A stretch of 57,602 nucleotides of DNA from Eubacteriales bacterium (GCA_045534025.1 JAZSIW010000062.1:1-57602), one strand, 5' to 3'; positions 9,479-51,242 are shown, counted from the first letter of the stretch. Notes: a model not told the origin generated them from the sequence alone. Numbers and translations are program-made.

Positions 9479-11146
9479 TTAAGCCCCCTGTTTTAAAATT
9501 CCTAATTTAATCAGCATCGATGCAATTCTATTACCCATCGGCAACAAGCGTACCTCTTTCTCAGTAATACCCTTGATTAACAATATAACAACAACATAAA
9601 CCGCCAAGCCGACTACACCCGACACACCCAAACGGAACAGATTTACTAACCTTCCGTCCCCTTGAACAAGCCTACATAATGAATATACTCCAAAGCTTGC
9701 AAAGCCCGCCGTAACAGCGGCAAAGAAAGGTTTTGCAAACAACGTTATGGGAGAAACACATTTCACCCCTACCCGCTTAAGAGATAATATATTGATTGTA
9801 AATGCAACTATGTAACATACGAGAGTACCTATGGGAGCGCCGTAAATATTAATGCTTGTTATTTTTACTAAAATTAAATCTGAAATTATAAGACACACGG
9901 CACCAACGCATACCGATATCATAGGTAAGTACGCCTTCCCTATTGCTTGAAGCAATGCGTTTGTTGTTGACACCAACGAAATGAAAAAAATGCCTACAGC
10001 CAAAATAGATAAAGCAGTTGCCGCTAAATCCACAGGCATAACAATATTGCCACCAAGCATAACAATGGGCTCGCCCCAAGTACTGCCAAACAACACACAA
10101 ATAAGCGGTCTGGACAAAACAAATAGCAAAGCGGCACAGGGTAAAGCAATAATTCCGCTTATTCTAAGAGACGCATGGATATAATCATCGACTTCTTTTT
10201 GCTTTTTTGCCGCCAATGCGCCCGAAATCGCGGGAAGAATACTGATTGCGATAGGAAAAACAAAAGTTGAGGGCAAAAGATCTGCAAGTTTTGTCGAAAG
10301 CCCCGTATAAGCACCGTACATTTCGTTGGCAATAAATTCCGAAAAGCCTGAACTTATCAGCGCTTTTTTTACTATAATTGTATCCGCGAAATGCGACATG
10401 TACAAAGCTGAACTTGTTATTGTAACCGGCAAAGCTACAATGGCAAGTTTTTTAATTATAACACTGTTGCTGTCACAGCCATAGTCTGTAAGAGGGGTAT
10501 AAATCTTTTTGGAAAATCGGCTGTATATTATTAAATATATCATGCCAAAAAACACGCCTACAGTTATACCAAGCACTGCAAAAGCAGCTTGAACCGCCGG
10601 TGAATGACCTTGATGATGAGACCAATATGCCATTCCCAAACCTATTGTTAACTTAAAAAACGCCTCAATAAATTGAGAAACTGCCGTTGGCACCATATTC
10701 CTTAGCCCTTGCAAATAACCCCTTATGGCAGAAACTACGCAGATAAAGAACAAGGTAGGTGCAATAACTCGCATTGCATTGATGCTGTTATAATGGGTAG
10801 TCCACAGAGCAATTTTATCTGCAAAGATAAACATTGCAAAAGCAAAAACAAAACCTATAACACCAAACAGCCACATGCAAATTTTATATATTTGCTTGGC
10901 CTCGTTTGCTCTGCCGCGTTTTGCCGATGCCGCGACCAATCTCGATGTAGCAACGGGCAACCCGGCTGTTGAAACCATATATAACATTGCATACACGGAA
11001 TATGCCGCATTAAATACGGCGATTTCCCCCTGCAAAAGATTACTTAAAGGGATGCTGAAAAGCACCCCTATTATTTTCACGGCAAAATTGGATATCGATA
11101 TTATCGAAGCTTCCACTAAAAAGCTTTTATCTGTTCTTTCTCCCAT
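9479..11146 (-). CDS. MOP-superfamily flippase, SpoVB/YabM-like
   Basis: 555 aa with ~14 TM helices and the polysaccharide biosynthesis (MurJ/SpoVB) family pattern. Synteny matches yabM-yabN. Confidence 0.75.
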   Translation of the reverse strand: MGERTDKSFLVEASIISISNFAVKIIGVLFSIPLSNLLQGEIAVFNAAYSVYAMLYMVSTAGLPVATSRLVAASAKRGRANEAKQIYKICMWLFGVIGFVFAFAMFIFADKIALWTTHYNSINAMRVIAPTLFFICVVSAIRGYLQGLRNMVPTAVSQFIEAFFKLTIGLGMAYWSHHQGHSPAVQAAFAVLGITVGVFFGMIYLIIYSRFSKKIYTPLTDYGCDSNSVIIKKLAIVALPVTITSSALYMSHFADTIIVKKALISSGFSEFIANEMYGAYTGLSTKLADLLPSTFVFPIAISILPAISGALAAKKQKEVDDYIHASLRISGIIALPCAALLFVLSRPLICVLFGSTWGEPIVMLGGNIVMPVDLAATALSILAVGIFFISLVSTTNALLQAIGKAYLPMISVCVGAVCLIISDLILVKITSINIYGAPIGTLVCYIVAFTINILSLKRVGVKCVSPITLFAKPFFAAVTAGFASFGVYSLCRLVQGDGRLVNLFRLGVSGVVGLAVYVVVILLIKGITEKEVRLLPMGNRIASMLIKLGILKQGA

Positions 11147-36511: not shown

Positions 36512-36541
36512 AATGGGAGGGCCAACGCCCTCCCATTTTTT
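36512..36541. terminator. bidirectional rho-independent terminator
   Basis: AATGGGAGGGC, loop CAAC, GCCCTCCCATT, flanked by A-runs upstream and T-runs downstream. It lies between convergent genes. Confidence 0.8.
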
Positions 36542-38429
36542 ATCTGTCATTCAAATCGTATACACCTTGGAATACATATACAACACCAAAACCGCCGCGA
36601 TCGCTTCTTAACCACTTACTTTCGAAGTAAGAAACGGTGTAATTTGTACGTACAATATTACTTTCAGATACGTTGGGATCATTTACTATAAAGTATTCAA
36701 CGCCATTGATTACAGTATAACCAACAACAAGCACCAAGTGACCCGAAGAGGTCAAAGAAGTTGTACAGCCAATCACGCAGCCCTGTGACAAAGCATACTT
36801 AATCATATCGGTATTATAGAAGTCAAGGAACGCATAGTAACCCTTTTCGCCTGCATATGCAGTAGCAAAAGCCCAGTTACCGTAAGCACCCCAATCGTTG
36901 TCGTACATGGCCTTGGCAGCTGTAAGAGAAGTAACCGTAGTACCCAAATATTCAAGCGCCATCGCAGTGGTCGTAGGACTGCAAATAATGTTGCCGATAG
37001 AACCGTTTGCAGAAGCCAACTGTGAACGCATGGGAACATTGTTCAAATAAGATGTGGGCAACGCAGATTTGTTAACGCTTTGTTGAAGCGCCATCTGAGG
37101 TGTTGCTAAGCTAAAGTTTTCAACTATCGGAACACCATTATTATATTTGGTCAATGTCAACCTAACGCGAACATTACCCGTTGTTGTATAGTTGCTGTTA
37201 ACGGTAAGTATATCCACATCAATAGAACCGTAAGTTGTTGAAGGTGAGGCGCTGCCGGAAACACCGGAGGATGTAGACCAAGTACCCCAACTTAAATAAG
37301 AAGACCATGCACCGGTTGTAAGCTCATAGGACACAGCCAGGCTGAGTTTACCATTATTGGTAACAGCATTCCAAGAAGCAAGCATCATCTTAAAGGACCC
37401 GATATTGATAATGTCCGTTGTAAAAGTACCGGAGGTGCTGCCGGAAGCAAGGGTAAGCTTGCCGTTGGAAACAACGGTACCGCTATGTGTACCCGTTACT
37501 TCAGTAAAGCGGAAGGTCTGTGCATGATAACGCAAATCGCTTTCGGGAACAACTATTTCTTCCGGCTCTGTTTTGTTAAGCTGAGTTACAACGGGAGTTA
37601 TGTAGCTGATTCTATGCGCAATAAACTTCCTCATTGTAAGCAGATCCGCAGTGTTAACAACAGTATCACCGTTAAGATCGTGTATAACACTTGTGGTATC
37701 GATAGTCTTTTTGGTAAGCCCCTTCAAAAAAATCGCATAATCCGTAGTGGTAACTGTAGCGTTGCTATCCAAATCCCCGATAACAAGAAGGGTATATGCT
37801 GCACTTGTGGCACTTTGAATAGTAAAACCATTGCCTAAATAACTGTCGTCCGCTACCGTGTTGCCGTCAGTATCCTTAACAACAAGCTCGTTTGTTGCTT
37901 CACAAAAATGCGTCTTTAGATCCCCGGCTTTGCTGTATACTCCTATACCGCTTACGGTCTTTTCGGCATGATCAATCACCAAATCAGAGTCAGAATCAAG
38001 CGTCAAACCGAAAGAAGAACTTACACGAACATAACCGGAGTTACAAGAACCGTTCGAAAGGTTAATGTTGTACAAACTTAACGTATCGCCTATACCTATC
38101 TTGCTGGCATTTTCATACTGCGCGTGCGACATGTGAGAAACCAACAAAATATGTTTATCTTTTACAGTCACATTCTTTGCGCCTGTAGGATAAATCGCTT
38201 CAACTTTGTAAACATTATAAGAAACATAAACTGCATCAATCGCAACCCAATACTGAGCATCAAATGTACCGGTTGTCCAAATATACGTGCCGCTTGTAGA
38301 CTTTGAGCCGTTGATAGAGTCAATGCATACCGTCAAGGCTCCCGCTGATGTTTCAACGGCCGGTATCAAACTGACGGCAAAGCACACAACAAGCAACATC
38401 GCCAAGCTTTTTACTAAATGCGTTTTCAC
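36540..38429 (-). CDS. secreted protein with an internal dockerin and a C-terminal C39-like (papain-fold) peptidase domain
   Basis: Signal peptide; a duplicated dockerin-type calcium-binding segment (GDLDSNATVTTTDYAIFLKGL and HDLNGDTVVNTADLLTMRKFI); a C-terminal Peptidase_C39_2-like pattern (NVPMRSQ...NIICSPTTTAMALEYLG...SSGHLVLVVGY...NDP). I moved the start to GTG 38429, which has GGAGG 7 nt upstream. The track start, GTG 38435, is only 1 nt from the RBS. Confidence 0.7.
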   Translation of the reverse strand: MKTHLVKSLAMLLVVCFAVSLIPAVETSAGALTVCIDSINGSKSTSGTYIWTTGTFDAQYWVAIDAVYVSYNVYKVEAIYPTGAKNVTVKDKHILLVSHMSHAQYENASKIGIGDTLSLYNINLSNGSCNSGYVRVSSSFGLTLDSDSDLVIDHAEKTVSGIGVYSKAGDLKTHFCEATNELVVKDTDGNTVADDSYLGNGFTIQSATSAAYTLLVIGDLDSNATVTTTDYAIFLKGLTKKTIDTTSVIHDLNGDTVVNTADLLTMRKFIAHRISYITPVVTQLNKTEPEEIVVPESDLRYHAQTFRFTEVTGTHSGTVVSNGKLTLASGSTSGTFTTDIINIGSFKMMLASWNAVTNNGKLSLAVSYELTTGAWSSYLSWGTWSTSSGVSGSASPSTTYGSIDVDILTVNSNYTTTGNVRVRLTLTKYNNGVPIVENFSLATPQMALQQSVNKSALPTSYLNNVPMRSQLASANGSIGNIICSPTTTAMALEYLGTTVTSLTAAKAMYDNDWGAYGNWAFATAYAGEKGYYAFLDFYNTDMIKYALSQGCVIGCTTSLTSSGHLVLVVGYTVINGVEYFIVNDPNVSESNIVRTNYTVSYFESKWLRSDRGGFGVVYVFQGVYDLNDR

Positions 38430-38464
38430 AAACACACCTCCAATTTTAATTTTACTTTAATAAT

Positions 38465-40378: not shown

Positions 40379-40386
40379 TTTAAAAG

Positions 40387-40431
40387 CTTGCCTTAGATGC
40401 TGTTTTATCGCATTTAAGGCAAGTTTTTTTA
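40387..40431 (+). terminator. rho-independent terminator after spoIVA-ylmC
   Basis: CTTGCCTTAGATGC, an 8-nt loop, GCATTTAAGGCAAG (one G-U pair), then TTTTTTT. Confidence 0.85.
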
Positions 40432-40526
40432 TTTTTTGTTCTTTTAATGAACAATTAAGGCAACCTTAATACTCTTATGCTATTTTGACAAATAGGTACA
40501 AAAAATAAACGAGCAAGGAGGCAAAG

Positions 40527-41246
40527 ATGGCTTATCAATCTGTTTTCAAACGGTACGAAATTAAATTTTTGTTGACACAGCAACAAAAAGATTTAATTGT
40601 TAAGGCAATGTCTCCATATATGCGTTTAGATCAATACGGCAAAACAACCATACGTAACATTTATTACGACACCGACAGTTACCTACTTATACGACGTTCA
40701 ATAGAAAAGCCTGTATTTAAAGAGAAGCTTCGAATCCGTAGCTATAAAAGAGTAAACAGTGATGAAAATGTTTTTGTGGAACTAAAAAAGAAGTATAAAG
40801 GTGTTGTGTACAAAAGACGCTTGGCTTTACCTGAAAAAAACGCCGTACAATGGATAAAAAACGGTGTATATCCATTGGAACAATGCCAGATTTCCAATGA
40901 GATAGACTTCTTTATACAGCATTACAAAAGTTTAAAACCGTCCGTATTTTTATCATACGAGCGTGAAGCCTTTTACGACGTTTCGGGAAGTGATTTTAGG
41001 GTAACTTTTGATGATAACATAATTAGCAGAAAAGAAGAGCTTTCTTTATGTAGTGACGTCTGGGGAGCCCCCTTGTTAAACGAAAATTGTGTTTTAATGG
41101 AGATAAAAACAGCAGGCGGTATACCGCTTTGGATGACACACATGCTTACGGAAATGAAGATATTTAAAACCTCGTTTTCTAAATACGGCAACGTATATAT
41201 AAATACTATACTGAGAGAACAGAAAGGGATTTTTTTGTATGCTTAA
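40527..41246 (+). CDS. VTC-domain (polyphosphate polymerase-like, triphosphate-tunnel fold) protein
   Basis: 239 aa and soluble. It carries an alternating charged beta-strand signature (KRYEIKF, RNIYYD, KLRIRSY, FVELKKK, YKRR, YEREAF, RVTFD, MEIK). AAGGAGG lies 5 nt upstream. Confidence 0.85.
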   Translation: MAYQSVFKRYEIKFLLTQQQKDLIVKAMSPYMRLDQYGKTTIRNIYYDTDSYLLIRRSIEKPVFKEKLRIRSYKRVNSDENVFVELKKKYKGVVYKRRLALPEKNAVQWIKNGVYPLEQCQISNEIDFFIQHYKSLKPSVFLSYEREAFYDVSGSDFRVTFDDNIISRKEELSLCSDVWGAPLLNENCVLMEIKTAGGIPLWMTHMLTEMKIFKTSFSKYGNVYINTILREQKGIFLYA

Positions 41247-41934
41247 TAAATATCTTGGCAGCGTATTGGAAATTGAAGGTACATATGCAATTGACATTAA
41301 AGTTTTTTTAACTTGCATTGCTGTGTCACTTCTAAGCGGTTTGATTATAGCCTTTGGGTATATGTTTAAAAATAAATACACAAGCAGCTTTGTTATTACC
41401 CTTGCCCTGCTTCCGGCAATGGTATGCGTAGTAATAATGACCGTAAACGGCAATGTAGGTATGGGCGTGGCTGTTGCAGGCGCTTTTGGACTGGTACGCT
41501 TTCGCTCCGTTCCCGGTAGTGCAAGAGAAATCGCAATTATTTTTCTCGCTATGGCAACAGGGCTTATCTCAGGAACAGGTTACCTGGGATATGCTTTACT
41601 GTTTTCAGTCATGATGACTGCCGTTTATATCCTGTATACCATTATAGGAAATCGTCCCGGAAAAAGAGATGCTTTATACAAAACTTTGTCAATTACCGTT
41701 CCGGAAGATCTTAACTACAGCGAAGCTTTTAAAGATCTTTTATCCGAATATACAAAAAGCCACGAACTCGTCAAAGTAAAAACTACCAACATGGGAAGCC
41801 TTTATAAACTTACATACAACATCGTTTTAAAAAAATGTGACAGCGAAAAGGAGTTTATCGATAAATTGCGTTGTCGCAACGGCAATCTTGAAATTAGCAT
41901 TTACAGACAAGAAAGTTCGGGCACAGAACTCTAA
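41239..41934 (+). CDS. DUF4956-type membrane protein
   Basis: 231 aa with four or five TM helices, a GLVRFRSVPGSAREIAIIFLAMATGL segment typical of DUF4956 and a ~90-aa soluble tail. It overlaps the VTC gene by 8 nt. Confidence 0.75.
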   Translation: MLNKYLGSVLEIEGTYAIDIKVFLTCIAVSLLSGLIIAFGYMFKNKYTSSFVITLALLPAMVCVVIMTVNGNVGMGVAVAGAFGLVRFRSVPGSAREIAIIFLAMATGLISGTGYLGYALLFSVMMTAVYILYTIIGNRPGKRDALYKTLSITVPEDLNYSEAFKDLLSEYTKSHELVKVKTTNMGSLYKLTYNIVLKKCDSEKEFIDKLRCRNGNLEISIYRQESSGTEL

Positions 41935-41961
41935 TGCCTAAATATAAATTATGGAGATATT

Positions 41962-44778
41962 ATGGTAAAAAAAACAATAGCAATAATCAAAAAATTACTT
42001 TCAAAAAACAAACGCTTATTTATCGTTATTTTTGCAGGTGTTGTTTTGTCGTTGATAGGCATCGTGTTTCTGCTTTTTTATGTTTTCAGTGGTTCTGATT
42101 CCATCGATAACACGCAACTTACCCAAGAAAGCGCGGTTTTAAACGTTGAAAGTTCGTCTGAGGACGGAGTTGAGTACACATCCGCAGACTCCGGTATAGA
42201 TGAATCGAGTGACCAAATTGAAAGCACGACAGACAGCGAAGAAAAAAATGACGAAAGTTGCTCTGTGGAACAGAACAAAGAGTCGCAAGATGTCACCGAA
42301 GACAGTATAACAGATTCATCCACTTCAGAAACTGAAGACGGCGGTAAAATAGACTCGTCAACTTCCGAGGCTGACGATAACAGCACGGTAGACTCGTCTG
42401 TTCCCGAGGACGATGACAGTAGCATCATAGACTCCTCTGCTCCCGAGGCCGATAACAGCAGCACCGTAGACTCCTCTGCTCCCGAAGCCGATGATAACAG
42501 CACCGTAGATTCGTCTGCTCCCGAGGCCGATGACAATAGCACCGTAGATTCGTCTGCTCCCGAAGCCGATGATAACAGCACCGTAGACTCCTCTGCTCCC
42601 GAAGCCGACGACAGCAGCACGGTAGACTCCTCTGCTCCCGAGACCGACGACAGCGGCACCGTAGATTCGTATGCTCCCGAGGCCGATGACAGCAGCACCG
42701 TAGATCCGTCTGCTCCCGAAGCCGACGACAGCAGCACGGTAGACTCCTCTGCTCCCGAGGCCGATGACAGCGGCACCGTAGATTCGTCTGCTTCCGAGGC
42801 CGATGACAACAGCACCGTAGATTCGTCTGCTCCCGAGGCCGATGACAGCAGCACCGTAGACTCGTCTGCTTCCGAGGTTGATGATTCTTCATCAAGTGAT
42901 ACAATCGATATTCCCGTTTCTACAGATGCAATGTTTACCAACCGAGACTTGAAAAATACCTACAACGCAAGTGATTCAATAACCATCACACTTGAAGGTG
43001 ACTCCATATATTGCAATTTCCCGCAATATGTTTCAATCAACGACAACACCGCTACTATTAAAGACGAAGGCGTATATATTGTAAAAGGCACGCTGAACAA
43101 CGGCATGATAAAAGTTGAAGCAGAACTCTCGGACAAAGTTCAAATCGTATTAAACAATGCAACAATATCTTCAAGCACTTCTGCCCCCATATATATAAAA
43201 CAGGCTGATAAAGTTTTTATTACGTTAAATGACGGCACATCCAATACGTTAATTACAGGAAGCAAATTTGTTGCAATAGACGAAAACAATATAGATGCTG
43301 CGATATTCTCTAAAGACGACTTAACCCTTAACGGTGCAGGAAATTTAACAATACAATCACCGGCAGGGCACGGTATAATATCTAAAGACGATTTGGTTGT
43401 AACCGGTGGCACGTACACGGTTATTTCAAGCGGTCACGCTTTTGCAGGAAAAAACAGTTTGCGCATTGGTGGAGGCACTTTTGTTATAAGAACAAACAAA
43501 GACGGTTTCCATGCAGAGGACCTAGACAACACCGTTTCCGGCTTTTTATACACGGCAAACGTCAACGGCACAATTACCGCTAACATAAACGCAGGAGGAG
43601 ATGCAATAAGCAGCCAAAGTTATTTAACAATGAACGGCGGTAGATTTGAAGGCACAAGCGGCGGTGGCAGTAGCATCGTTCCTGACGAAACATTAAGCGC
43701 TAAGGGCATCAAATGCGATGGCACAATTACAATAAACACAGGTACAACAATAAATTTCGATACTGCCGACGACGGTATCCACACAAGCGGAAATATTGTT
43801 GTAAACGGAGGGAATATAACCTTAACCTCAGGATATGACTGTTTCCAAGCCGACGGTACTCTAACAGTCAACGGAGGAACATTAACATTAACCGCAGGCG
43901 GCGGTTCTTCTGCATACCACAACTCCTCAGCAAGTGCCAAAGGGCTTAAGTCCACAGGGGCCCTAACCATAATTGACGGCAACATAACCATCGATAGTGC
44001 AGACGACGGTATACACTCCGGCTCGGACATTAATATATCCGGCGGTGTATTTAATATTTCAACCGGCGACGACGCTATGCATTCTGACACAAATTTGAAT
44101 GTAACAGGCGGCACTGTCAACATAGCAAAAAGCTATGAGGGGCTTGAATCCACACATATAGTCATTGACGGCGGCGAAATTATCTTAAAATCCAGCGACG
44201 ACGGTCTAAATGCCGCCGGGGGCGTCGATTCAAGCGGAACGTCAACAGGAAATACTACGGGGTTGCAGGGCAGGCCCGGCAAACCAGGCAGACCCGGCGA
44301 TAACTTTTCCGCAAGCAACGGCTCCATAAAAATCAGCGGCGGCACAATTATAATAAACGCTTCCGGTGACGGCATAGATGCTAACGGAAATATAGAAGTT
44401 TCAGGAGGTAACATTGCTGTTTCAGGCCCAACAAGCGGCGGAAACGGCAGTTTAGATTACGACGGAACGGCTACAATAAGCGGCGGTGTTTTGGTTGCAA
44501 TAGGCTCGAGACAAATGGCAATGAACTTTAGTTCTGCAACCAATCAAGGTTGCGCGCTATTTACCTTTTCTGCTACACAAACCGCAAATACTCCGATTAA
44601 ATTAATCGATAGCAACGGCAATATACTATTCTCATGGATTGCTGACAAAACATACTCTTCCGTTGTAATCAGTTGCCCCGATTTTACGGTTGGAGATTCT
44701 TTTTCGTTAACCGCCGGCTCATTTTCATCGGGAGTATTCACACTAAGCGGTAGCGGCCTTTATAAGAAAAACGGATAA
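41962..44778 (+). CDS. membrane-anchored surface protein: acidic tandem repeats plus a Cthe_2159-like parallel beta-helix (carbohydrate-binding-domain family)
   Basis: 938 aa. An N-terminal signal-anchor helix is followed by 15 acidic 13-aa repeats. After them come ~600 aa of repeated GG-x-hydrophobic-x-hydrophobic...DDG(I/L)(H/N) turns characteristic of the Cthe_2159 beta-helix family, including a GRPGKPGRPG insert. Confidence 0.75.
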   Translation: MVKKTIAIIKKLLSKNKRLFIVIFAGVVLSLIGIVFLLFYVFSGSDSIDNTQLTQESAVLNVESSSEDGVEYTSADSGIDESSDQIESTTDSEEKNDESCSVEQNKESQDVTEDSITDSSTSETEDGGKIDSSTSEADDNSTVDSSVPEDDDSSIIDSSAPEADNSSTVDSSAPEADDNSTVDSSAPEADDNSTVDSSAPEADDNSTVDSSAPEADDSSTVDSSAPETDDSGTVDSYAPEADDSSTVDPSAPEADDSSTVDSSAPEADDSGTVDSSASEADDNSTVDSSAPEADDSSTVDSSASEVDDSSSSDTIDIPVSTDAMFTNRDLKNTYNASDSITITLEGDSIYCNFPQYVSINDNTATIKDEGVYIVKGTLNNGMIKVEAELSDKVQIVLNNATISSSTSAPIYIKQADKVFITLNDGTSNTLITGSKFVAIDENNIDAAIFSKDDLTLNGAGNLTIQSPAGHGIISKDDLVVTGGTYTVISSGHAFAGKNSLRIGGGTFVIRTNKDGFHAEDLDNTVSGFLYTANVNGTITANINAGGDAISSQSYLTMNGGRFEGTSGGGSSIVPDETLSAKGIKCDGTITINTGTTINFDTADDGIHTSGNIVVNGGNITLTSGYDCFQADGTLTVNGGTLTLTAGGGSSAYHNSSASAKGLKSTGALTIIDGNITIDSADDGIHSGSDINISGGVFNISTGDDAMHSDTNLNVTGGTVNIAKSYEGLESTHIVIDGGEIILKSSDDGLNAAGGVDSSGTSTGNTTGLQGRPGKPGRPGDNFSASNGSIKISGGTIIINASGDGIDANGNIEVSGGNIAVSGPTSGGNGSLDYDGTATISGGVLVAIGSRQMAMNFSSATNQGCALFTFSATQTANTPIKLIDSNGNILFSWIADKTYSSVVISCPDFTVGDSFSLTAGSFSSGVFTLSGSGLYKKNG
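42313..42897 (+). repeat. 15 x 39-nt in-frame tandem repeat (consensus DSSAPEADD(N/S)STV)
   Basis: Head-to-tail 39-nt units read directly from the sequence. The repeat phase matches codons 118-312 of the 41962 ORF. The first and last units are degenerate. Confidence 0.95.
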
Positions 44779-44819
44779 AAAACAGCTGAAGGCGTTTTTC
44801 AAGGCCTTCAGCTGTTTTT
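44778..44819. terminator. bidirectional rho-independent terminator
   Basis: AAAAACAGCTGAAGGC, a 10-nt loop, GCCTTCAGCTGTTTTT. The stem is perfect, with an A-run and a T-run, and lies between convergent genes. Confidence 0.9.
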
Positions 44820-44861
44820 GCTATGTTACCCATCAAGCCGACGGATTTTTTTGGGGGATTT

Positions 44862-45677
44862 TTATATATCCAAATAGTCTTTTCTGTAATTAACACTGAA
44901 GGTTTCAGCAAGAGCTTTAAGTTCTTCATCTTTAATTGTGTTTATTACCGGCAAATGTGCGGTAAGCATATACAGTTGTGCCGCTTTTTCTACAGTTTCT
45001 ATTAACCCAAAAGCCTCATCCAAGCTATTTCCGGTACCGTAAATTCCGTGGATGCCCCAAATTACAAGGCGGTGGTTTAGCATTTGCTTGGCAGTCGCTT
45101 CGCCGATTTCGTTTGTTCCGCAAACCATCCAAGGCAACACCCCTATCCCGTCCGGAAACACTATTATACACTCACTGCAAGTTTGCCATAAAGAACGGGT
45201 AAAAGCCCTTTCTTCCAACACGTGTACCCTATTCATTGCCAATGTATATGTGGGGTGACTGTGAATAACTACCTTATGCGCTTTGTCAACCGACAGTCTC
45301 ACCTTATGGCTTTTAAGATGTGCGGGAAGTTCGCTTGTAAATTTACCTCCGTCTTTAAATCCCCAAAGCAACTCTGCGTTATTGCCATCATCTGAAATTC
45401 TTATAATGCCAAGATTTAATTCCGGATCATCTTTTATGTTTTTGAAATACTTTCCCGTACCGGTAACAATAAATATCTTGCCCGCAAGCTCTATCCCGTC
45501 AAAGCCCAAAGGAATTTCCCTTATTACAGAATCAAGGTTCAAATATTCACTCACTTCAGCTTCATCCAACAAACAGCTTATGTTACCACCGTTTCGTTCA
45601 TCCCAACCCAAACGGTACATATTAGCAGCAGTATCTGCCATTTCGATTACAAAAGGGGCTTTGAAAATATCCATCAT
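44862..45677 (-). CDS. rhaD: rhamnulose-1-phosphate aldolase
   Basis: 271 aa. It aligns by eye with E. coli RhaD (GWDERNGGN, TSELPAH, VVFPDGIGVLPWMVCGTNEIGEATA). Confidence 0.9.
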   Translation of the reverse strand: MMDIFKAPFVIEMADTAANMYRLGWDERNGGNISCLLDEAEVSEYLNLDSVIREIPLGFDGIELAGKIFIVTGTGKYFKNIKDDPELNLGIIRISDDGNNAELLWGFKDGGKFTSELPAHLKSHKVRLSVDKAHKVVIHSHPTYTLAMNRVHVLEERAFTRSLWQTCSECIIVFPDGIGVLPWMVCGTNEIGEATAKQMLNHRLVIWGIHGIYGTGNSLDEAFGLIETVEKAAQLYMLTAHLPVINTIKDEELKALAETFSVNYRKDYLDI

Positions 45678-46909
45678 TCTCTATTCACCAATACTTCTTT
45701 CTCATATTTTTTTATAGAGCTTAAATAATCCGTTTCTACCTCTGCCCTATTCAAAAATTCCTGCCATACATCGCCAAACGGGGCAGTCTTAAGTTCTTCG
45801 TTTAAAACCATAAGCTCCGTCATGTTATTGTTATCTTGCAACTTTTTCATTCGTTCGCAAGGGGTTAACAAAGCATACAGCAAAGCCTTTTGCAAACTTC
45901 TTACGCCCGTTACCCATGCAGAGATCCGATTTATTGAAGCGTCGAAATAATCAGTAGCCAAAAACACACGGTCAGTTGCATTGCACTTAACTACTTCGGC
46001 GGCGATGGCTTTCGTTTCATCATCAAACAACACAACATGGTCAGAATCCCACCTAACAGCCCTTGTAACATGCAAAGCGATTTTTTCGTTAAACAAAAGC
46101 AAGGAAGAAATTTTATCTGCAACCGATTCTGTAGGATGATAATGGCCGTTATCCATAAGCGGCGTTATTCCCTTATAGTTTGCATAAGAAAGGCAAAACT
46201 CTGCAGAACCCACTGTATAGCTTTCAACGCCTATACCAAACACCTTAGACTCTAAGGTTATGTAAACCTTTTCTTTATCATACTCTGTTGATAATATATC
46301 GTCTAAGGAAGCCTTAAATCTTGCTCTTGGTCCGTAACGGTCAGCAGGTATATCCTTATATCCATCCGGTATCCAAATATTCATAATGCAAGGCATGCCC
46401 GTTTCTTCTGCAAAATATTGAGATATTTTAAGACAAGCTATCCCGTGATTGACCCAATATTTTCTTACTTGCTCATCGGGAGAAGAAAGGGTAAGACCGT
46501 CTTTTACCATAGGGTGGGAAAAAAACGTAGGGTTAAAATCAATGCCAACTCCATGTTTTTTTGCAAAATCAACCCATTTTTTAAAATGTACAGGCCTTAA
46601 TTCATCCCTTCCTACTGCTCCATCTGTTATAGCATAGCAAGCGTGTAAATTAAGTTTCTTCTTCCCGGGTATTAACTTAAACGCTGTTTCTATATCCATC
46701 ATAAGCTCATCGGGCGTACGAGCTTTTCCTACATAGTTACCCGTTGCCTGTATTCCACCGGACAAAGCTTCGCTGCTGTCGAAACCGCAAACATCATCTC
46801 CTTGCCAACAATGGATAGAAATGCTTATATTGTTTAAAGCCTTCAAGGCTTCTTCCGTTGAAATACCAAGCTTTTCATAAATGCATTTCGCTTCAGAATA
46901 TCTGCTCAT
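45674..46909 (-). CDS. rhaA: L-rhamnose isomerase
   Basis: RhaA family pattern (IHCWQGDDV...). I moved the start to ATG 46909 (MSRYSEAK), which has GGGAG 7 nt upstream. The track start is TTG 46927. Confidence 0.92.
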   Translation of the reverse strand: MSRYSEAKCIYEKLGISTEEALKALNNISISIHCWQGDDVCGFDSSEALSGGIQATGNYVGKARTPDELMMDIETAFKLIPGKKKLNLHACYAITDGAVGRDELRPVHFKKWVDFAKKHGVGIDFNPTFFSHPMVKDGLTLSSPDEQVRKYWVNHGIACLKISQYFAEETGMPCIMNIWIPDGYKDIPADRYGPRARFKASLDDILSTEYDKEKVYITLESKVFGIGVESYTVGSAEFCLSYANYKGITPLMDNGHYHPTESVADKISSLLLFNEKIALHVTRAVRWDSDHVVLFDDETKAIAAEVVKCNATDRVFLATDYFDASINRISAWVTGVRSLQKALLYALLTPCERMKKLQDNNNMTELMVLNEELKTAPFGDVWQEFLNRAEVETDYLSSIKKYEKEVLVNRE

Positions 46910-46913
46910 ATAA

Positions 46914-48293
46914 TTACTCCCTGTCAATTTTTGTTATATTAAAGGATTTTCTTACAATTTTGCGTGCTTTGATCAAATCCAGCTCGGAGTTAACATACAT
47001 ACATTGGCTTATTAAGTTGCCTATAGCGGTAGCTTCCACAGGCCCTGCATAAACATCTTTACCTGTATACTTTGCGGTAAGTTTATTAAGTAAAGCATCC
47101 TTGCTTCCACCGCCTATTATATGTACGGCGTAAAAACGCCTATCCGCTATATTCTCAATTTCAGCTATTGCGCGCGCATAACAAGAAGCCAAGGAATGGT
47201 AAACAGACGACAAAACATCGCAAAGCGGCAAATTAGCGTCACCAAGAAGCTTTCTTATTGCACAAAGCATATCCGGCGGAGCCACCAAGCTATCATCATT
47301 TGGGTCAAATGCACCTTTATAATCGCTTTGCTCTGCAAACTGCATCATTTCATCATAGCTGTATTTTTTATTTATGCTTCTGCGAATTCCTTGAAAAAGC
47401 CACATTCCCATAATGTTTTTTAAAAAACGATAAGTGCCAAACACGCCACCCTCATTTGTAAGGTTTGCAGTCATTGCCTGCGTGCTTAATATAGGTTCTT
47501 TGTTTTCAGTTCCGACCAAGCTCCAAGTACCGGAGCTTATGTAAGCCCCTGACCTAAACATAGGGCATGCAGCAACAGCCGAAGCGGTATCGTGGCTTGG
47601 GCACAGTAAAACAGTCGCATTAAAACCCACGCGTTCTTTTACCGCACTATCAAATTCGCCCAAGCGATACGGAGGGTGTTCAATTGTTCCAAACAGTTTT
47701 TGCGGAAAACCCAACCGAGATATCAAATTACGATTCCAATCTCTGCTTGTTGCATCCACAAGGTTGGTTGTAGTTGCGTTTGTATATTCGTGACAAATTT
47801 TACCCGTTAATTTGTATGACAAATATTCAGGCATCATCAGCATATATTCCGCTTTCTCAAGCCTGCCTGCCAATTTGTCGCAATACAGCCTGTAAACGGT
47901 ATTAAAATTTTGATGTTGTATACCTGTGACGGCATAAAGCTCTTCTCTCGATACAATCGAAGACACCTCCGACTGTACAAAAGCCGTTTCTCCGTCACGA
48001 TAGGCATATGCAGGCAAAATTTCTACGCCATGTGAATCCAAAAGAACATAGTCAACGCCCCATGTATCTATGGCCACCGTTTCAGGAATAACGCCTATCT
48101 CTGCACACTTTGCTATTCCGTTTATAACCTGCGCAGTCAATTCTTCCAAATCCCAGACAAGCCTTTCACCAAAGCTTTTCATCCCGTTTTCAAAGCGATA
48201 TATTTCTTTGGTTGAAAGCACACCGTTATCTATATTTCCCAAAATATGTCTGCCGCCGGAAGCACCGATATCTATAGCCAGATGATAAATCAT
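46914..48293 (-). CDS. rhaB: rhamnulokinase
   Basis: FGGY-family kinase whose N-terminus LAIDIGASGGRHILG fits rhamnulokinase, in the rhaBAD context. I moved the start to ATG 48293, which has GGGAGG 6 nt upstream. Confidence 0.9.
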   Translation of the reverse strand: MIYHLAIDIGASGGRHILGNIDNGVLSTKEIYRFENGMKSFGERLVWDLEELTAQVINGIAKCAEIGVIPETVAIDTWGVDYVLLDSHGVEILPAYAYRDGETAFVQSEVSSIVSREELYAVTGIQHQNFNTVYRLYCDKLAGRLEKAEYMLMMPEYLSYKLTGKICHEYTNATTTNLVDATSRDWNRNLISRLGFPQKLFGTIEHPPYRLGEFDSAVKERVGFNATVLLCPSHDTASAVAACPMFRSGAYISSGTWSLVGTENKEPILSTQAMTANLTNEGGVFGTYRFLKNIMGMWLFQGIRRSINKKYSYDEMMQFAEQSDYKGAFDPNDDSLVAPPDMLCAIRKLLGDANLPLCDVLSSVYHSLASCYARAIAEIENIADRRFYAVHIIGGGSKDALLNKLTAKYTGKDVYAGPVEATAIGNLISQCMYVNSELDLIKARKIVRKSFNITKIDRE

Positions 48294-48373
48294 AACAAGC
48301 CTCCCATCGTACTGTATTATACAGTTATAGCATAAAAATATCAATATTTTTTCAAAAATTTTTCAAAACTTAA

Positions 48374-48438
48374 CCCCACCTTTAAATCAAGCACCAAAAG
48401 TTTATGTGCTTTTGGATAGGCATATCAAAAAGGTGGGG
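48374..48438 (-). terminator. nested hairpin after the GDSL lipoprotein gene (possible terminator)
   Basis: An outer stem CCCCACCTTT/AAAGGTGGGG (10 bp) encloses an inner stem CCAAAAG/CTTTTGG. On the minus strand a U-rich tract (UUAAGUUUUG) follows. Confidence 0.35.
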
Positions 48439-48444
48439 CTAAAA

Positions 48445-49539
48445 TTATTTAATTTCCTTTATGGCCATCAAATGCAAATTTGAAAGCTCCATGTGTCCGC
48501 GTAAATTCGGATGAGGGTCAAAATTAAAACCGAAGGGAATGAAACTTAATGTAGCGTTTACAAGCCCACCCGTGGTTTTAAAGGGTTCATACGCTTCAAC
48601 CAATGCACAATTTTTCTCTTCTGCTATCCGAATAATCTCCGCGTCAAGCGCAGATACCCAACGATCTGAAACTGCACCCATATCAAAGTTAATACCAAGA
48701 TAAGGCAAAGATAAATTAATGCCGTTATATGGACTGTAAACCGTTGTTACAACTATATCCGCTCCAGGTGCACGTCTGTTAATTTCTTCAATAATATAAA
48801 CGAGGTCAATTTTCAACTGTTCTATACCTTCGCTCATACGGGCAGAAAATTCTTCGCTCTCTACCTCTGCTTGTATCGCTTTAACAGCATCAATAAAAGC
48901 AGAGCTTTGTATTTCACTTTGACCTACCGAACCAGATGACGAAACCATGGAAGGCATATATTTTTCTACAACTTCAAGAAAATTATGCAAAAGATTGTTA
49001 GCTCCTATGCAAATTGTTATCAAATCTGCATCGTTCACGGCTTCTGCGCCTTTATCTAAGAGCTCGATAAGTCCTTGGGTAGTCATACCATCAACTGCAT
49101 AGGTGGTGTAATTTACTGTTGTGCCGTCAAGAACCGTTGTCAGCGCTTTTGTTAACAACGCAGGATAACATTCATTAACCGGATCCTTTAACCCGTATCC
49201 CCTGGCAATAGAATCGCCCAAAGCCACATAGTTTAACGTTGCCATACCATAATACTTAGACTGGGCAAATACAGAAACAGAATTGTTAAAAGAGCTTTCA
49301 CTTTCCGCATTTTCCTCTTCGGAGGTCTCGCTTTCGCTTTTTTCGGAAAAATTATCATTTATAACATTTTCTTCCCTTCCCTCATCCGACGAGTTTTGTT
49401 CAACCCTGCTTGCTTCGATTTGAGATACGGGAGAACCGTCCTCATTATTATCTTGTTTTTTACAAGAGGAAAAAACGAAACAAATACACAATAAAATCGT
49501 TATAATTTCAAAAAGACTTTTTTTCTTCAAAGCAATCAC
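48445..49539 (-). CDS. SGNH/GDSL-family hydrolase lipoprotein
   Basis: Signal peptide plus lipobox (VFSSC), an S/E-rich acidic linker, then SGNH blocks (VALGDSIARGYG, CIGANN, DPHPNLRGH). The track's GTG start overlaps the ligase stop. An alternative TTG at 49530 has GGAG 8 nt upstream. Confidence 0.8.
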   Translation of the reverse strand: MIALKKKSLFEIITILLCICFVFSSCKKQDNNEDGSPVSQIEASRVEQNSSDEGREENVINDNFSEKSESETSEEENAESESSFNNSVSVFAQSKYYGMATLNYVALGDSIARGYGLKDPVNECYPALLTKALTTVLDGTTVNYTTYAVDGMTTQGLIELLDKGAEAVNDADLITICIGANNLLHNFLEVVEKYMPSMVSSSGSVGQSEIQSSAFIDAVKAIQAEVESEEFSARMSEGIEQLKIDLVYIIEEINRRAPGADIVVTTVYSPYNGINLSLPYLGINFDMGAVSDRWVSALDAEIIRIAEEKNCALVEAYEPFKTTGGLVNATLSFIPFGFNFDPHPNLRGHMELSNLHLMAIKEIK

Positions 49540-51242
49540 TCCGCCTTTGCATCATAAGTTCTTTTTATCTTTCTGGTTGTAGTTTTTTCAAACTCTCTAT
49601 CTCTAAACACAAGTTGTTTGATAACACGATAAGAAGGTTGCTTCTTATTAAACGCTCCAATCGCCTTTTTTATCTCTTCCTCAACATCTTCTATGCCCTG
49701 ACTTGCGGCATATTCATAGCTTGGATATATTTCCGCCCCAAGGGCCTTGCCGTTAAGATCTGCCGCTTTGGCTGAATAAACTACAACTTCTGATATAAAA
49801 GGAATATCCATAAGCTGTTCTTCTATTTCTTCAGGATATATATTTTTGCCGTTTTTAAGAACTATAAGGTTCTTTTTTCTGCCGGTTATATATATAAATC
49901 CGTCTTTGTCTATCTTGCCGATATCGCCTGTATGAAAGAAACCGTCTTTAATTGCAGCCTTTGTTGCCTCAGGGTTTTTATAATAGCCAAGCATTACATT
50001 TCTGCCCTTTACTATAATTTCGCCCTCTCCATCTTCGTTAGGCTCATAAATCTTAACAACGGTATCCTTTAGCGGCAAACCTACGGAAGCAAAATTATAA
50101 TGCTCTGGTCTGTTTATGGAAATAAGCGGACCGCATTCCGTAATTCCGTAGCCGTTTATCATAACAATGCCTATGCTTTCAAAAAATTCTGTTATGTTAC
50201 TTTTTAACGGTGCGCCGCCGCAAATAAAAGATATTAGCTCTCCGCCAAAGGTTTCATGTATGTCTTTAAACAGGCTTCTTCTCTTATCTATACCGATTTT
50301 TAGCAACAAGTTGCTTATTTTTATTCCCTTTTCAAACTTTTTTGTAAGCCCTTCATCTTCAATAGTCGACTTTATACGTCTGTAAAAATTTTCAGCATAA
50401 AGCGGAACTATTTGCATTTCTGTCGGCTTATATTTTTTAAAATTGGGAAGTATTGTGCGCAAGCTTTCATTTATGCATATAGTCATACCGTGATGAAGCA
50501 TTGTGAGCAAACCGCAAGTCGCTTCATAGCAATGATTATAAGGCAGCACCGATAAAGCGCGTTCTGTAATCTTCATAAGTTCTTGGCTTTTTACAATGTT
50601 GAAGCACAACGTATCCTGTGAAAGCATAACACCCTTGCTTTTGCCGGTTGTGCCCGATGTGTAAACCAATTGCTTTAAGCCATACATATCGGGAACCGCA
50701 TCCAGAAAACGAGTGTCCCCCTCTTCAAGCAAGCGCTGACCGTGCAGAAGCAAATCATCCACGGTTTGCACACCGTCTAAAGCGGATGCCACACCGTCCA
50801 TAAGTATAAACGTTTTTATACCGGTTATGCTCTTTTTTATTTCCTCAATTTTCTTGCTTACAGAGGCGGTAAAAAAGATTGCTTCGCACTCCGAATGAAT
50901 CAATATATTGCTTATCTCTTCTACAGAAAGCTCTTTATCAACAGGCGTAACAACCGCTTCCGAAATCAACACCGTAACATAAGACAGCACCCACGGATAA
51001 CAGTTATCGCCTATGATAGAAATATGACTTTTGCCTATACCCAAGCTGTACAAAGCCGTACCCAAACAATCCACTTGATTTTTGAATTCACCGTATTTTA
51101 CGGAACAATCATTTCCGTCTTTGCGATATCTAAAAGCATCCTTTTCCGAAAAAAGGCTTGCAGACGAATCTACTAACATACGTATACTTTCGCAAGGGCG
51201 CACCTCATAGTAAGGATAGTTCTTTTTTCTGTTTTTATACAT
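49536..51242 (-). CDS. long-chain acyl-CoA (or acyl-ACP) synthetase, AMP-binding family
   Basis: 568 aa with AMP-binding motif YTSGTTGKSKGV, TGDIGKIDKDGFIYITGRKK and the FAA1-type architecture. Confidence 0.88.
   Translation of the reverse strand: MYKNRKKNYPYYEVRPCESIRMLVDSSASLFSEKDAFRYRKDGNDCSVKYGEFKNQVDCLGTALYSLGIGKSHISIIGDNCYPWVLSYVTVLISEAVVTPVDKELSVEEISNILIHSECEAIFFTASVSKKIEEIKKSITGIKTFILMDGVASALDGVQTVDDLLLHGQRLLEEGDTRFLDAVPDMYGLKQLVYTSGTTGKSKGVMLSQDTLCFNIVKSQELMKITERALSVLPYNHCYEATCGLLTMLHHGMTICINESLRTILPNFKKYKPTEMQIVPLYAENFYRRIKSTIEDEGLTKKFEKGIKISNLLLKIGIDKRRSLFKDIHETFGGELISFICGGAPLKSNITEFFESIGIVMINGYGITECGPLISINRPEHYNFASVGLPLKDTVVKIYEPNEDGEGEIIVKGRNVMLGYYKNPEATKAAIKDGFFHTGDIGKIDKDGFIYITGRKKNLIVLKNGKNIYPEEIEEQLMDIPFISEVVVYSAKAADLNGKALGAEIYPSYEYAASQGIEDVEEEIKKAIGAFNKKQPSYRVIKQLVFRDREFEKTTTRKIKRTYDAKAE

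Follow-up and report, generated by a model that had tools for sequence, protein, structure and literature searches.

Bacterial polyphosphate (polyP) is attributed to PPK1 and PPK2. Does a bacterial operon that pairs a VTC-domain enzyme with a membrane protein provide another route to this polymer, and on which side of the membrane would its product be used? The question is raised by a 57,602-nt stretch of DNA from a Eubacteriales bacterium (GCA_045534025.1, JAZSIW010000062.1:1-57602; analysed whole and hereafter called the window), in which three open reading frames (ORFs), all on the plus strand, occupy positions 40527–44778 between two strong intrinsic terminators. The first, g1 (40527–41246, 239 aa), encodes a Vtc4-like triphosphate-tunnel enzyme, cytoplasmic and predicted to be a polyP polymerase. 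The second, g2 (41239–41934, 231 aa), encodes a DUF4956 membrane protein and starts 8 nt inside g1. The third, g3 (41962–44778, 938 aa), encodes a surface protein with an N-terminal transmembrane (TM) anchor, an acidic linker, and a Cthe_2159-type parallel beta-helix. The unit is a genuine operon with clear boundaries, and it typifies a cassette that is very widespread. A preliminary description of it, made from this DNA alone, had proposed a ‘split VTC’ that hands a polyanion to a surface protein; its ORF coordinates and 8-nt overlap hold, and its three family assignments were confirmed by matches to the Pfam families VTC, DUF4956, and Cthe_2159. We read the operon, with a probability of roughly 45%, as a regulated envelope module with a two-protein core, in which g1 synthesizes polyP at the membrane together with g2, and g3 is an exchangeable extracytoplasmic partner.

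The product of g1 matched Pfam VTC (PF09359; E = 2.2e-40, 139 bits against a cut-off of 23), residues 8–222 aligning with positions 1–229 of the 235-position model. VTC was the sole Pfam match; g1 is a bare tunnel domain, without SPX and without a membrane domain. A single-sequence phmmer search against PDB gave no match for g1, and a profile was required. The profile of g1 homologues, which took in distant ones from Paenibacillus, Enterococcus, Acetoanaerobium, and Nonomuraea, matched yeast Vtc4 at E = 1e-10, aligned from residue 1. NCBI names proteins of the g1 type ‘polyphosphate polymerase domain-containing protein’; neither g1 nor g2 has a model in NCBIfam. The AlphaFold2 model of g1 (pLDDT 84, pTM 0.80) is all beta/alpha, without a hydrophobic helix. 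Searched against PDB with Foldseek, it returned Vtc4, Vtc3, and Vtc2 tunnel domains as the top 13 matches (E = 3e-11 to 2e-8, TM-score 0.61–0.68), with CYTH enzymes next.

According to cryo-EM of the VTC complex, nine residues of Vtc4 (K200, R264, R266, K281, Y359, R361, E426, S457, and K458) hold the triphosphate and Mn2+ and are needed for polyP synthesis, and K458 is the sole difference between active Vtc4 and inactive Vtc2/Vtc3 (bioRxiv 10.1101/2023.01.27.525886). In the profile alignment they correspond, in this order, to K13, R69, R71, K87, Y144, R146, E192, S218, and K219 of g1, and all nine positions are invariant across the homologues, in an alignment reaching 26% identity. Loss of tunnel residues relative to Vtc4, which the preliminary description had regarded as fatal to its proposal, was thus not found: 9 of 9 are kept. 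Additional basic residues of the tunnel also have counterparts (Vtc4 R196, K294, R373, and K428 are g1 R9, K96, R158, and K194). Towards the C-terminus, the HMM alignment between g1 and Vtc4 scored weakly; the motifs LEVK/MEIK and FSKF/FSKY are nonetheless in register. Judged from these residues, g1 is likely to be an active Vtc4-like polyP polymerase.

Alternatively, g1 might be a tunnel metalloenzyme with a different reaction (a triphosphatase, a hydrolase of nucleotides or other phosphoanhydrides, or a cyclase), and the operon would then serve in signalling or detoxification and have nothing to do with polyP. Membership in Pfam VTC is no proof of activity, CYTH enzymes are the next-best structural matches of g1, and Glu11, from the ExExK motif of the hydrolase type, is retained in g1. 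The invariance of all nine polymerase residues, the Lys458 equivalent included, argues against such a reaction, as does the ranking of the VTC domains ahead of every CYTH structure in sequence and fold searches alike. We consider this explanation very unlikely.

To see the cassette in other genomes, we scanned species-representative genomes and obtained at least 592 loci, of which the best 80, all from Clostridia and 57–71% identical, were analysed. Among these, g2 lay directly 3' of g1 in 75 of the 76 loci that had space for it, the 8-nt g1/g2 overlap was conserved in 42, and a g3-type helix came next in 67 of 73. In a reverse check, g3 homologues (35–80% identity), chosen solely for long contigs, stood directly after VTC-DUF4956 in 5/5 cases. 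Both g1 and g2 have at least 8,000 close homologues, and a g1 profile search of 1.84 billion representatives gave 7,523 clusters at E ≤ 1e-3, of which 1,237 remained at E ≤ 1e-30. Four distant Gram-positive lineages keep the VTC-DUF4956 pair with a varying third gene. The gene orders are histidine kinase (HK), response regulator (RR), VTC, DUF4956, Cthe_2159 in Paenibacillus; RR, HK, VTC, DUF4956, PLD-like in Acetoanaerobium; VTC, DUF4956, RR, HK, CotH on an Enterococcus faecalis plasmid; and VTC, DUF4956, CotH in Nonomuraea. The association of the families anticipated in the preliminary description is therefore borne out for VTC and DUF4956. For g3 it stands in part: the gene follows in most of the clostridial loci, but it lies outside the invariant core, is missing from the closest relative, and is swapped for CotH or PLD-like genes elsewhere. 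What stays constant is the pair of VTC and DUF4956; the third position is filled by surface partners that can be exchanged.

The third gene of Acetoanaerobium (L083, 9492–11045) encodes a membrane-anchored, cardiolipin-synthase-like protein of the PLD family, neither a beta-helix nor CotH. Natural VTC-DUF4956 fusions were looked for, and none was found. Long fusion proteins considered as Rosetta-stone evidence were set aside, as they look like deletions or assembly artefacts: P0292 and P0318 join a shortened VTC to Cthe_2159 without DUF4956, and L019 (2647–4305) has the DUF4956 TM domain in-frame with an esterase.

The product of g3 matched Pfam Cthe_2159 (PF14262; E = 2.8e-97, 325.6 bits) in four stretches, and its residues 341–572 matched the Cthe_2159 structure (4PEU/4PHB) at E = 7e-27. 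The protein consists of a hydrophobic N-terminal anchor (~19–42), a Ser/Asp/Glu linker of 270 aa with 83 acidic residues (Asp/Glu), and the beta-helix (~331–938). A 39-nt tandem repeat on the plus strand (42350–42884; 13.7 copies, 85% matches, and no indels by TRF) encodes the acidic 13-aa units of the linker (DSSAPEADDNSTV). Counted in the protein with the degenerate first and last units, these number 15, as previously described. The position of Ser45 in the window is the lipobox Cys in at least 90% of 68 g3 homologues, so most relatives are lipoproteins, and the clade of the window has an uncleaved hydrophobic anchor in place of the lipobox. The CotH and Cthe_2159 partners in distant lineages likewise carry lipoprotein signals. 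By these predicted signals the helix of g3 is outside the membrane, whether via the anchor or as a lipoprotein.

Like Cthe_2159 of Clostridium thermocellum, a PL9-like protein, g3 has an acidic parallel beta-helix (pI 4.4; homologue median 4.1). It differs in a helix about twice as long, in being membrane-anchored via a long acidic repeat linker, and in belonging to a subfamily that follows VTC-DUF4956 (the five cases checked above). The conserved residues of g3 are mainly Gly, Asp, Asn, and His, in the motifs DDxxH (two or three times), SYEGxE, and GDGxDxNG, and look like a metal-binding or active site. In the account given by a later paper, the Cthe_2159 family binds cellulose and polygalacturonic acid, the latter being another linear polyanion (Close et al. 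2014, cited in bioRxiv 10.1101/401869).

The variety of third partners also bears on another explanation, that no free polyP is released and the module adds phosphate to, or modifies in some other way, a polymer of the envelope or a protein of the surface, for example by passing phosphoryl groups to the third partner outside the cell or by decorating a polysaccharide. In other lineages these partners are CotH lipoproteins or the PLD-like protein. The co-occurrence of VTC, DUF4956, and CotH is already published: cotH, ‘poly-phosphate polymerase’, DUF4956, and DUF4832 genes are accessory genes of pel operons, the cassette of cotH, VTC, and DUF4956 (with or without DUF4832) lying beside the Pel operons of Gram-positive bacteria (Whitfield et al., bioRxiv 10.1101/768473). 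NELoc-2 of C. perfringens has a VTC gene and a gene for a ‘tubulin/FtsZ’-annotated membrane protein, likely DUF4956, followed by CotH, and there the cassette adjoins CotH and a chitin-synthase-like gene (PMC2879425). By sequence, these cassettes contain the same VTC plus DUF4956 pair as our operon. Our operon differs in having a Cthe_2159 beta-helix for CotH and in lacking Pel genes, and the OmpR-type system found in its relatives is not described in those papers. Other literature mentions of VTC/DUF4956 genes were rows of transcriptome tables, and literature searches found no functional study of a bacterial VTC cassette. In a few loci, genes for glycosyltransferase 2 (GT2)/GtrA and phosphodiester-glycosidase proteins after g3 also fit such an activity. 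The window contains no CotH, Pel, or glycosyltransferase genes near the operon, however, g3 has no recognised transferase domain, and nothing identifies an acceptor. Modification of the envelope is, in our judgement, quite unlikely as the explanation of this operon.

The GT2/GtrA loci deserve a separate description. In 3–5 loci (L026, L042, L059, and L064), the genes 3' of g3 encode a GT2 glycosyltransferase with a GtrA-like tail, a phosphodiester glycosidase of the NAGPA family, and a small membrane protein. They hint at a tie to phosphodiester-linked wall glycopolymers.

The product of g2 matched Pfam DUF4956 (PF16316; E = 9.4e-18, 64.9 bits against a cut-off of 30.6). Its AlphaFold2 model has five TM helices (20–42, 49–68, 73–88, 95–112, and 116–136) and a soluble tail (147–223) with a beta-alpha-beta-beta-alpha-beta order, which is ACT/PII-like. 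Application of the positive-inside rule to these helices places the N-terminus probably outside and the KNK loop, the VRFRSxPG loop, and the ACT-like tail probably in the cytoplasm, which is also the side of g1. Between TM3 and TM4, the VRFRSxPG loop is invariant among homologues, and two invariant Arg lie at the cytoplasmic end of TM3. A Foldseek search with the model gave weak matches (E ≥ 0.013) for the tail only, to ACT domains and PII-like proteins; the TM domain had no match, and no VTC chain was among the results. A sequence profile of g2 matched nothing in PDB.

We compared the g2 alignment with nine MgtC-family proteins by hhalign and obtained E = 3.4e-4 and a probability of 38% over 142 collinear columns. 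The score of 27.9 was above those of all 60 column- or block-shuffled controls (maximum 19.5) and of the reversed alignment (12.2). Pfam MgtC did not match g2 at E ≤ 10, and YhiD alone was not significant against the g2 profile. Proteins of the MgtC/SapB type (E. coli YhiD and Salmonella MgtC) resemble g2 in having five TM helices ahead of a small alpha/beta domain of regulatory type, and their Gly-rich TM3/TM4 motifs are collinear with those of g2, whereas the VRFRSxPG loop is specific to DUF4956. A distant relationship of g2 to MgtC/SapB is suggestive, not established.

How far does the resemblance to the eukaryotic complex extend? Eukaryotic VTC (yeast Vtc4; PDB 3G3Q, 7YTJ, and 8I6V) has in common with g1 the tunnel fold and the full catalytic set, including the Mn2+ ligand and Lys458, and it pairs the enzyme with a membrane protein, which in the operon is encoded alongside. 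It also possesses an SPX sensor, a C-terminal DUF202 three-helix membrane domain, and Vtc1/2/3 partners, all of which g1 lacks. The VTC channel is built of three-helix subunits of the DUF202 type (Vtc1 and the C-termini of Vtc3 and Vtc4) with basic rings, whereas g2 is an unrelated five-helix DUF4956 protein, whose two invariant Arg at the end of TM3 would be its sole analogy to those rings. VTC is controlled by inositol pyrophosphate, whereas control of the cassette appears to be transcriptional, through a two-component system, perhaps together with the ACT-like domain. Of the term ‘split VTC’, therefore, the Vtc4-type catalytic domain stands, but no similarity was detected between DUF4956 and the subunits of the VTC channel, and the name is at most an analogy. 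Since g2 and the eukaryotic channel are not homologous, any resemblance beyond the catalytic domain would be convergent.

Two-component control was not mentioned in the preliminary description. An OmpR-type RR and a HisKA kinase adjoin the cassette in 50 of 81 loci; the window itself contains no two-component genes. Two kinds of direct repeat were found 5' of g1. TTCAAT-N5-TTCAAT occurred in 22 of 80 loci (0.09 expected), 20 of the 22 having regulator genes directly upstream on the same strand, and TTAAG-N5/6-TTA[AGT][GT] occurred in 18 of 80 (0.7 expected from shuffles). The latter 18 include the window and the syntenic loci L001–L003, all with the same TGn -10 layout. In the window, the candidate RR-dependent promoter (40455–40486, plus strand) has the direct repeat TTAAG (40455–40459)-N5-CTTAAT (40465–40470), with an 11-nt period, followed by an extended -10 element, TGCTATTTT (40478–40486, plus strand). 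It has no -35 hexamer. From this arrangement, the promoter is probably activator-dependent and served by an OmpR-type regulator encoded elsewhere in the genome.

Several further features touch on regulation. The 9-mer TTAAGGCAA is present twice, 41 nt apart, in the 3' arm of the upstream terminator (40414–40422) and in the first half of the putative regulator box (40455–40463); the former copy could be a third half-site or chance. In L028 (~9935–10000), L031, L034, L050, L071, and about 15 others, all with the RR/HK genes immediately 5' of g1 and in its orientation, the leader of g1 (-65 to -1 from its start) contains CCTCCTGTAC...GTACAGGAGG, which forms a hairpin that pairs the Shine-Dalgarno (SD) sequence with an anti-SD sequence; this hairpin is absent from the window. 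In loci with upstream RR/HK genes, the -10 sequence (TACAAT) overlaps the 5' arm of the hairpin, so that RNA started at the regulated promoter would lack the anti-SD, whereas in read-through RNA from the regulator genes the hairpin would mask translation. Six loci (L005, L008, L042, L049, L056, and L073) have a gene for a small alarmone synthetase of ~220 aa with a RelA_SpoT domain beside the two-component genes of the cassette. In P0349, a weak receiver domain stands ahead of VTC, which would echo the two-component link.

The envelope-module reading can be put as a sequence of steps. The OmpR-type RR encoded elsewhere would switch the operon on, and g2 would be made in step with g1 via the 8-nt overlap, by translational coupling. 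g2 would recruit g1 to the membrane, where g1, with Mn2+ or Mg2+ held by Glu192, would add the gamma-phosphate of ATP to a growing polyP chain inside its basic beta-barrel tunnel. g2 might then conduct the nascent chain outward as an oligomer, or gate and regulate synthesis via its ligand-binding-type domain. By way of divalent cations, g3 might retain the polyanion on the cell surface or process it there. A physical complex of g1 and g2 is likely, and export through g2 is possible; binding or use of polyP by g3 is speculative.

Several points weigh against this reading. The closest relative (L093; GCA_052835625.1, JAZMNZ010000019.1, 10001–11482), with a g1 76% identical and the same flanking synteny, is missing the whole of g3: its DUF4956 gene is followed after 74 nt by a rhamnulose-phosphate aldolase gene. 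A few other loci also have the g1-g2 pair alone, and the surface partner is thus not essential. The g3 helix, being acidic, could bind polyP only via bridging cations. g2 shows no likeness in sequence or fold to the channel helices of Vtc1/Vtc4 by profile and Foldseek searches, the confidence of its model is merely moderate (pLDDT 70), and its one hint of kinship is to MgtC/SapB, a family of regulators rather than channels. As to g1, Glu11 (in RYExK) is kept in all relatives where Vtc4 has Thr198, a remnant of the hydrolytic ExExK motif that leaves some room for a hydrolase or a different chemistry, and searches of the searchable literature gave no activity data on bacterial VTC-domain proteins.

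Some of the same observations suit an explanation in which g1 makes polyP at the cytoplasmic face of the membrane and the polymer stays inside the cell, as granules or as a stress or phosphate/Mg2+ buffer, g2 is an MgtC-like anchor or regulator whose ACT-like domain senses a metabolite, and g3 is merely co-regulated, within one envelope or nutrient regulon. MgtC proteins act in regulating the homeostasis of phosphate, Mg2+, and ATP, and g2 has the MgtC/SapB architecture of five TM helices and an ACT-like tail, with hhalign scores above composition-matched controls. This character of g2, together with the dispensability of g3 in the closest relative and several other loci, favours a regulator. 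That a surface partner is so regularly present points instead to an end-point outside the cytoplasm: a dedicated Cthe_2159 protein is third in most clostridial loci, CotH lipoproteins take that place in two distant lineages, and the occurrence of the g3 subfamily in the cassette in every case checked argues for a shared extracytoplasmic task. Moreover, eukaryotes avoid free cytosolic polyP from this type of enzyme by coupling synthesis to translocation. We regard purely intracellular polyP as rather unlikely, and prefer the envelope module with its two-protein core.

Folding confirmed terminators on both sides of the operon and with them the self-contained transcription unit that had been proposed; a simple consensus terminator scan detected neither hairpin. 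The upstream terminator (40385–40436, plus strand) closes the unit of spoIVA and a PRC-barrel gene, cutting it off from the operon, and has a 15-bp stem (ΔG -22.3 kcal/mol, z -6.9) followed by a U-run. The downstream hairpin (44776–44822) has 16 contiguous pairs and 2 beyond an internal bulge, with A and U runs on its flanks. Its stem is stable on both strands (ΔG -27.1 and z -8.1 on the plus strand, -25.4 and -6.8 on the minus strand) and, with the flanking A/U runs, this indicates a bidirectional intrinsic terminator, common to the operon and the convergent rhamnose-catabolism genes.

Those convergent genes lie at 44862–51242 on the minus strand and encode a class II aldolase (RhaD-like), the L-rhamnose isomerase RhaA (E = 3e-176), and an FGGY kinase (RhaB-like); beyond the kinase, within the same interval and on the same strand, are a GDSL lipase and an AMP-binding enzyme. 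On the other side, 36540–38435 (minus strand) encodes a secreted 631-aa protein with dockerin type I and Peptidase_C39_2 domains, which is kept in syntenic relatives and suggests that the host belongs to the cellulosome-bearing gut or rumen Clostridia. The location beside spoIVA-ylmC had been taken as compatible with a link to sporulation. We discarded this link, as the spoIVA neighbourhood is limited to the five closest syntenic relatives (L001–L003, L093, and L094) and is not found at the other loci. An anti-phage defence system was also considered and dropped, since g1, g2, and the g3 helix had no match among the PADLOC models.

The predicted product of g1 is the same as that of PPK1 and PPK2, polyP from a nucleoside triphosphate, and there is no homology between them. 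PPK1 has a PLD-like fold and works through a phospho-histidine intermediate, whereas g1 is a tunnel metalloenzyme. A bolder proposal, which we hold to be doubtful, is that VTC-DUF4956 constitutes a third bacterial route to polyP and the first dedicated bacterial polyP synthase-exporter, operating via an MgtC-like protein that evolved independently of the VTC channel, feeding surface lipoproteins, and controlled by two-component systems in thousands of gut Clostridia and other Gram-positive bacteria. Extracellular polyP made in this way might form a Ca-polyP scaffold on the Cthe_2159 helices, or serve as a phosphoryl donor for CotH kinases where ATP is absent.

At least 7,500 protein clusters (50% identity) contain a Vtc4-type enzyme with its full catalytic set, and so do the genomes of at least ~600 species, including many gut and rumen Clostridia. 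Were it active, the way in which polyP metabolism is read from genomes would change. Extracellular bacterial polyP has been linked to host barrier effects, and if the product of g1 reaches the surface, the cassette would give a genetic handle on it. If export to the surface is true, the operon would show that the coupling of polymer synthesis to translocation evolved convergently, with a membrane partner that has no homology to the eukaryotic one.

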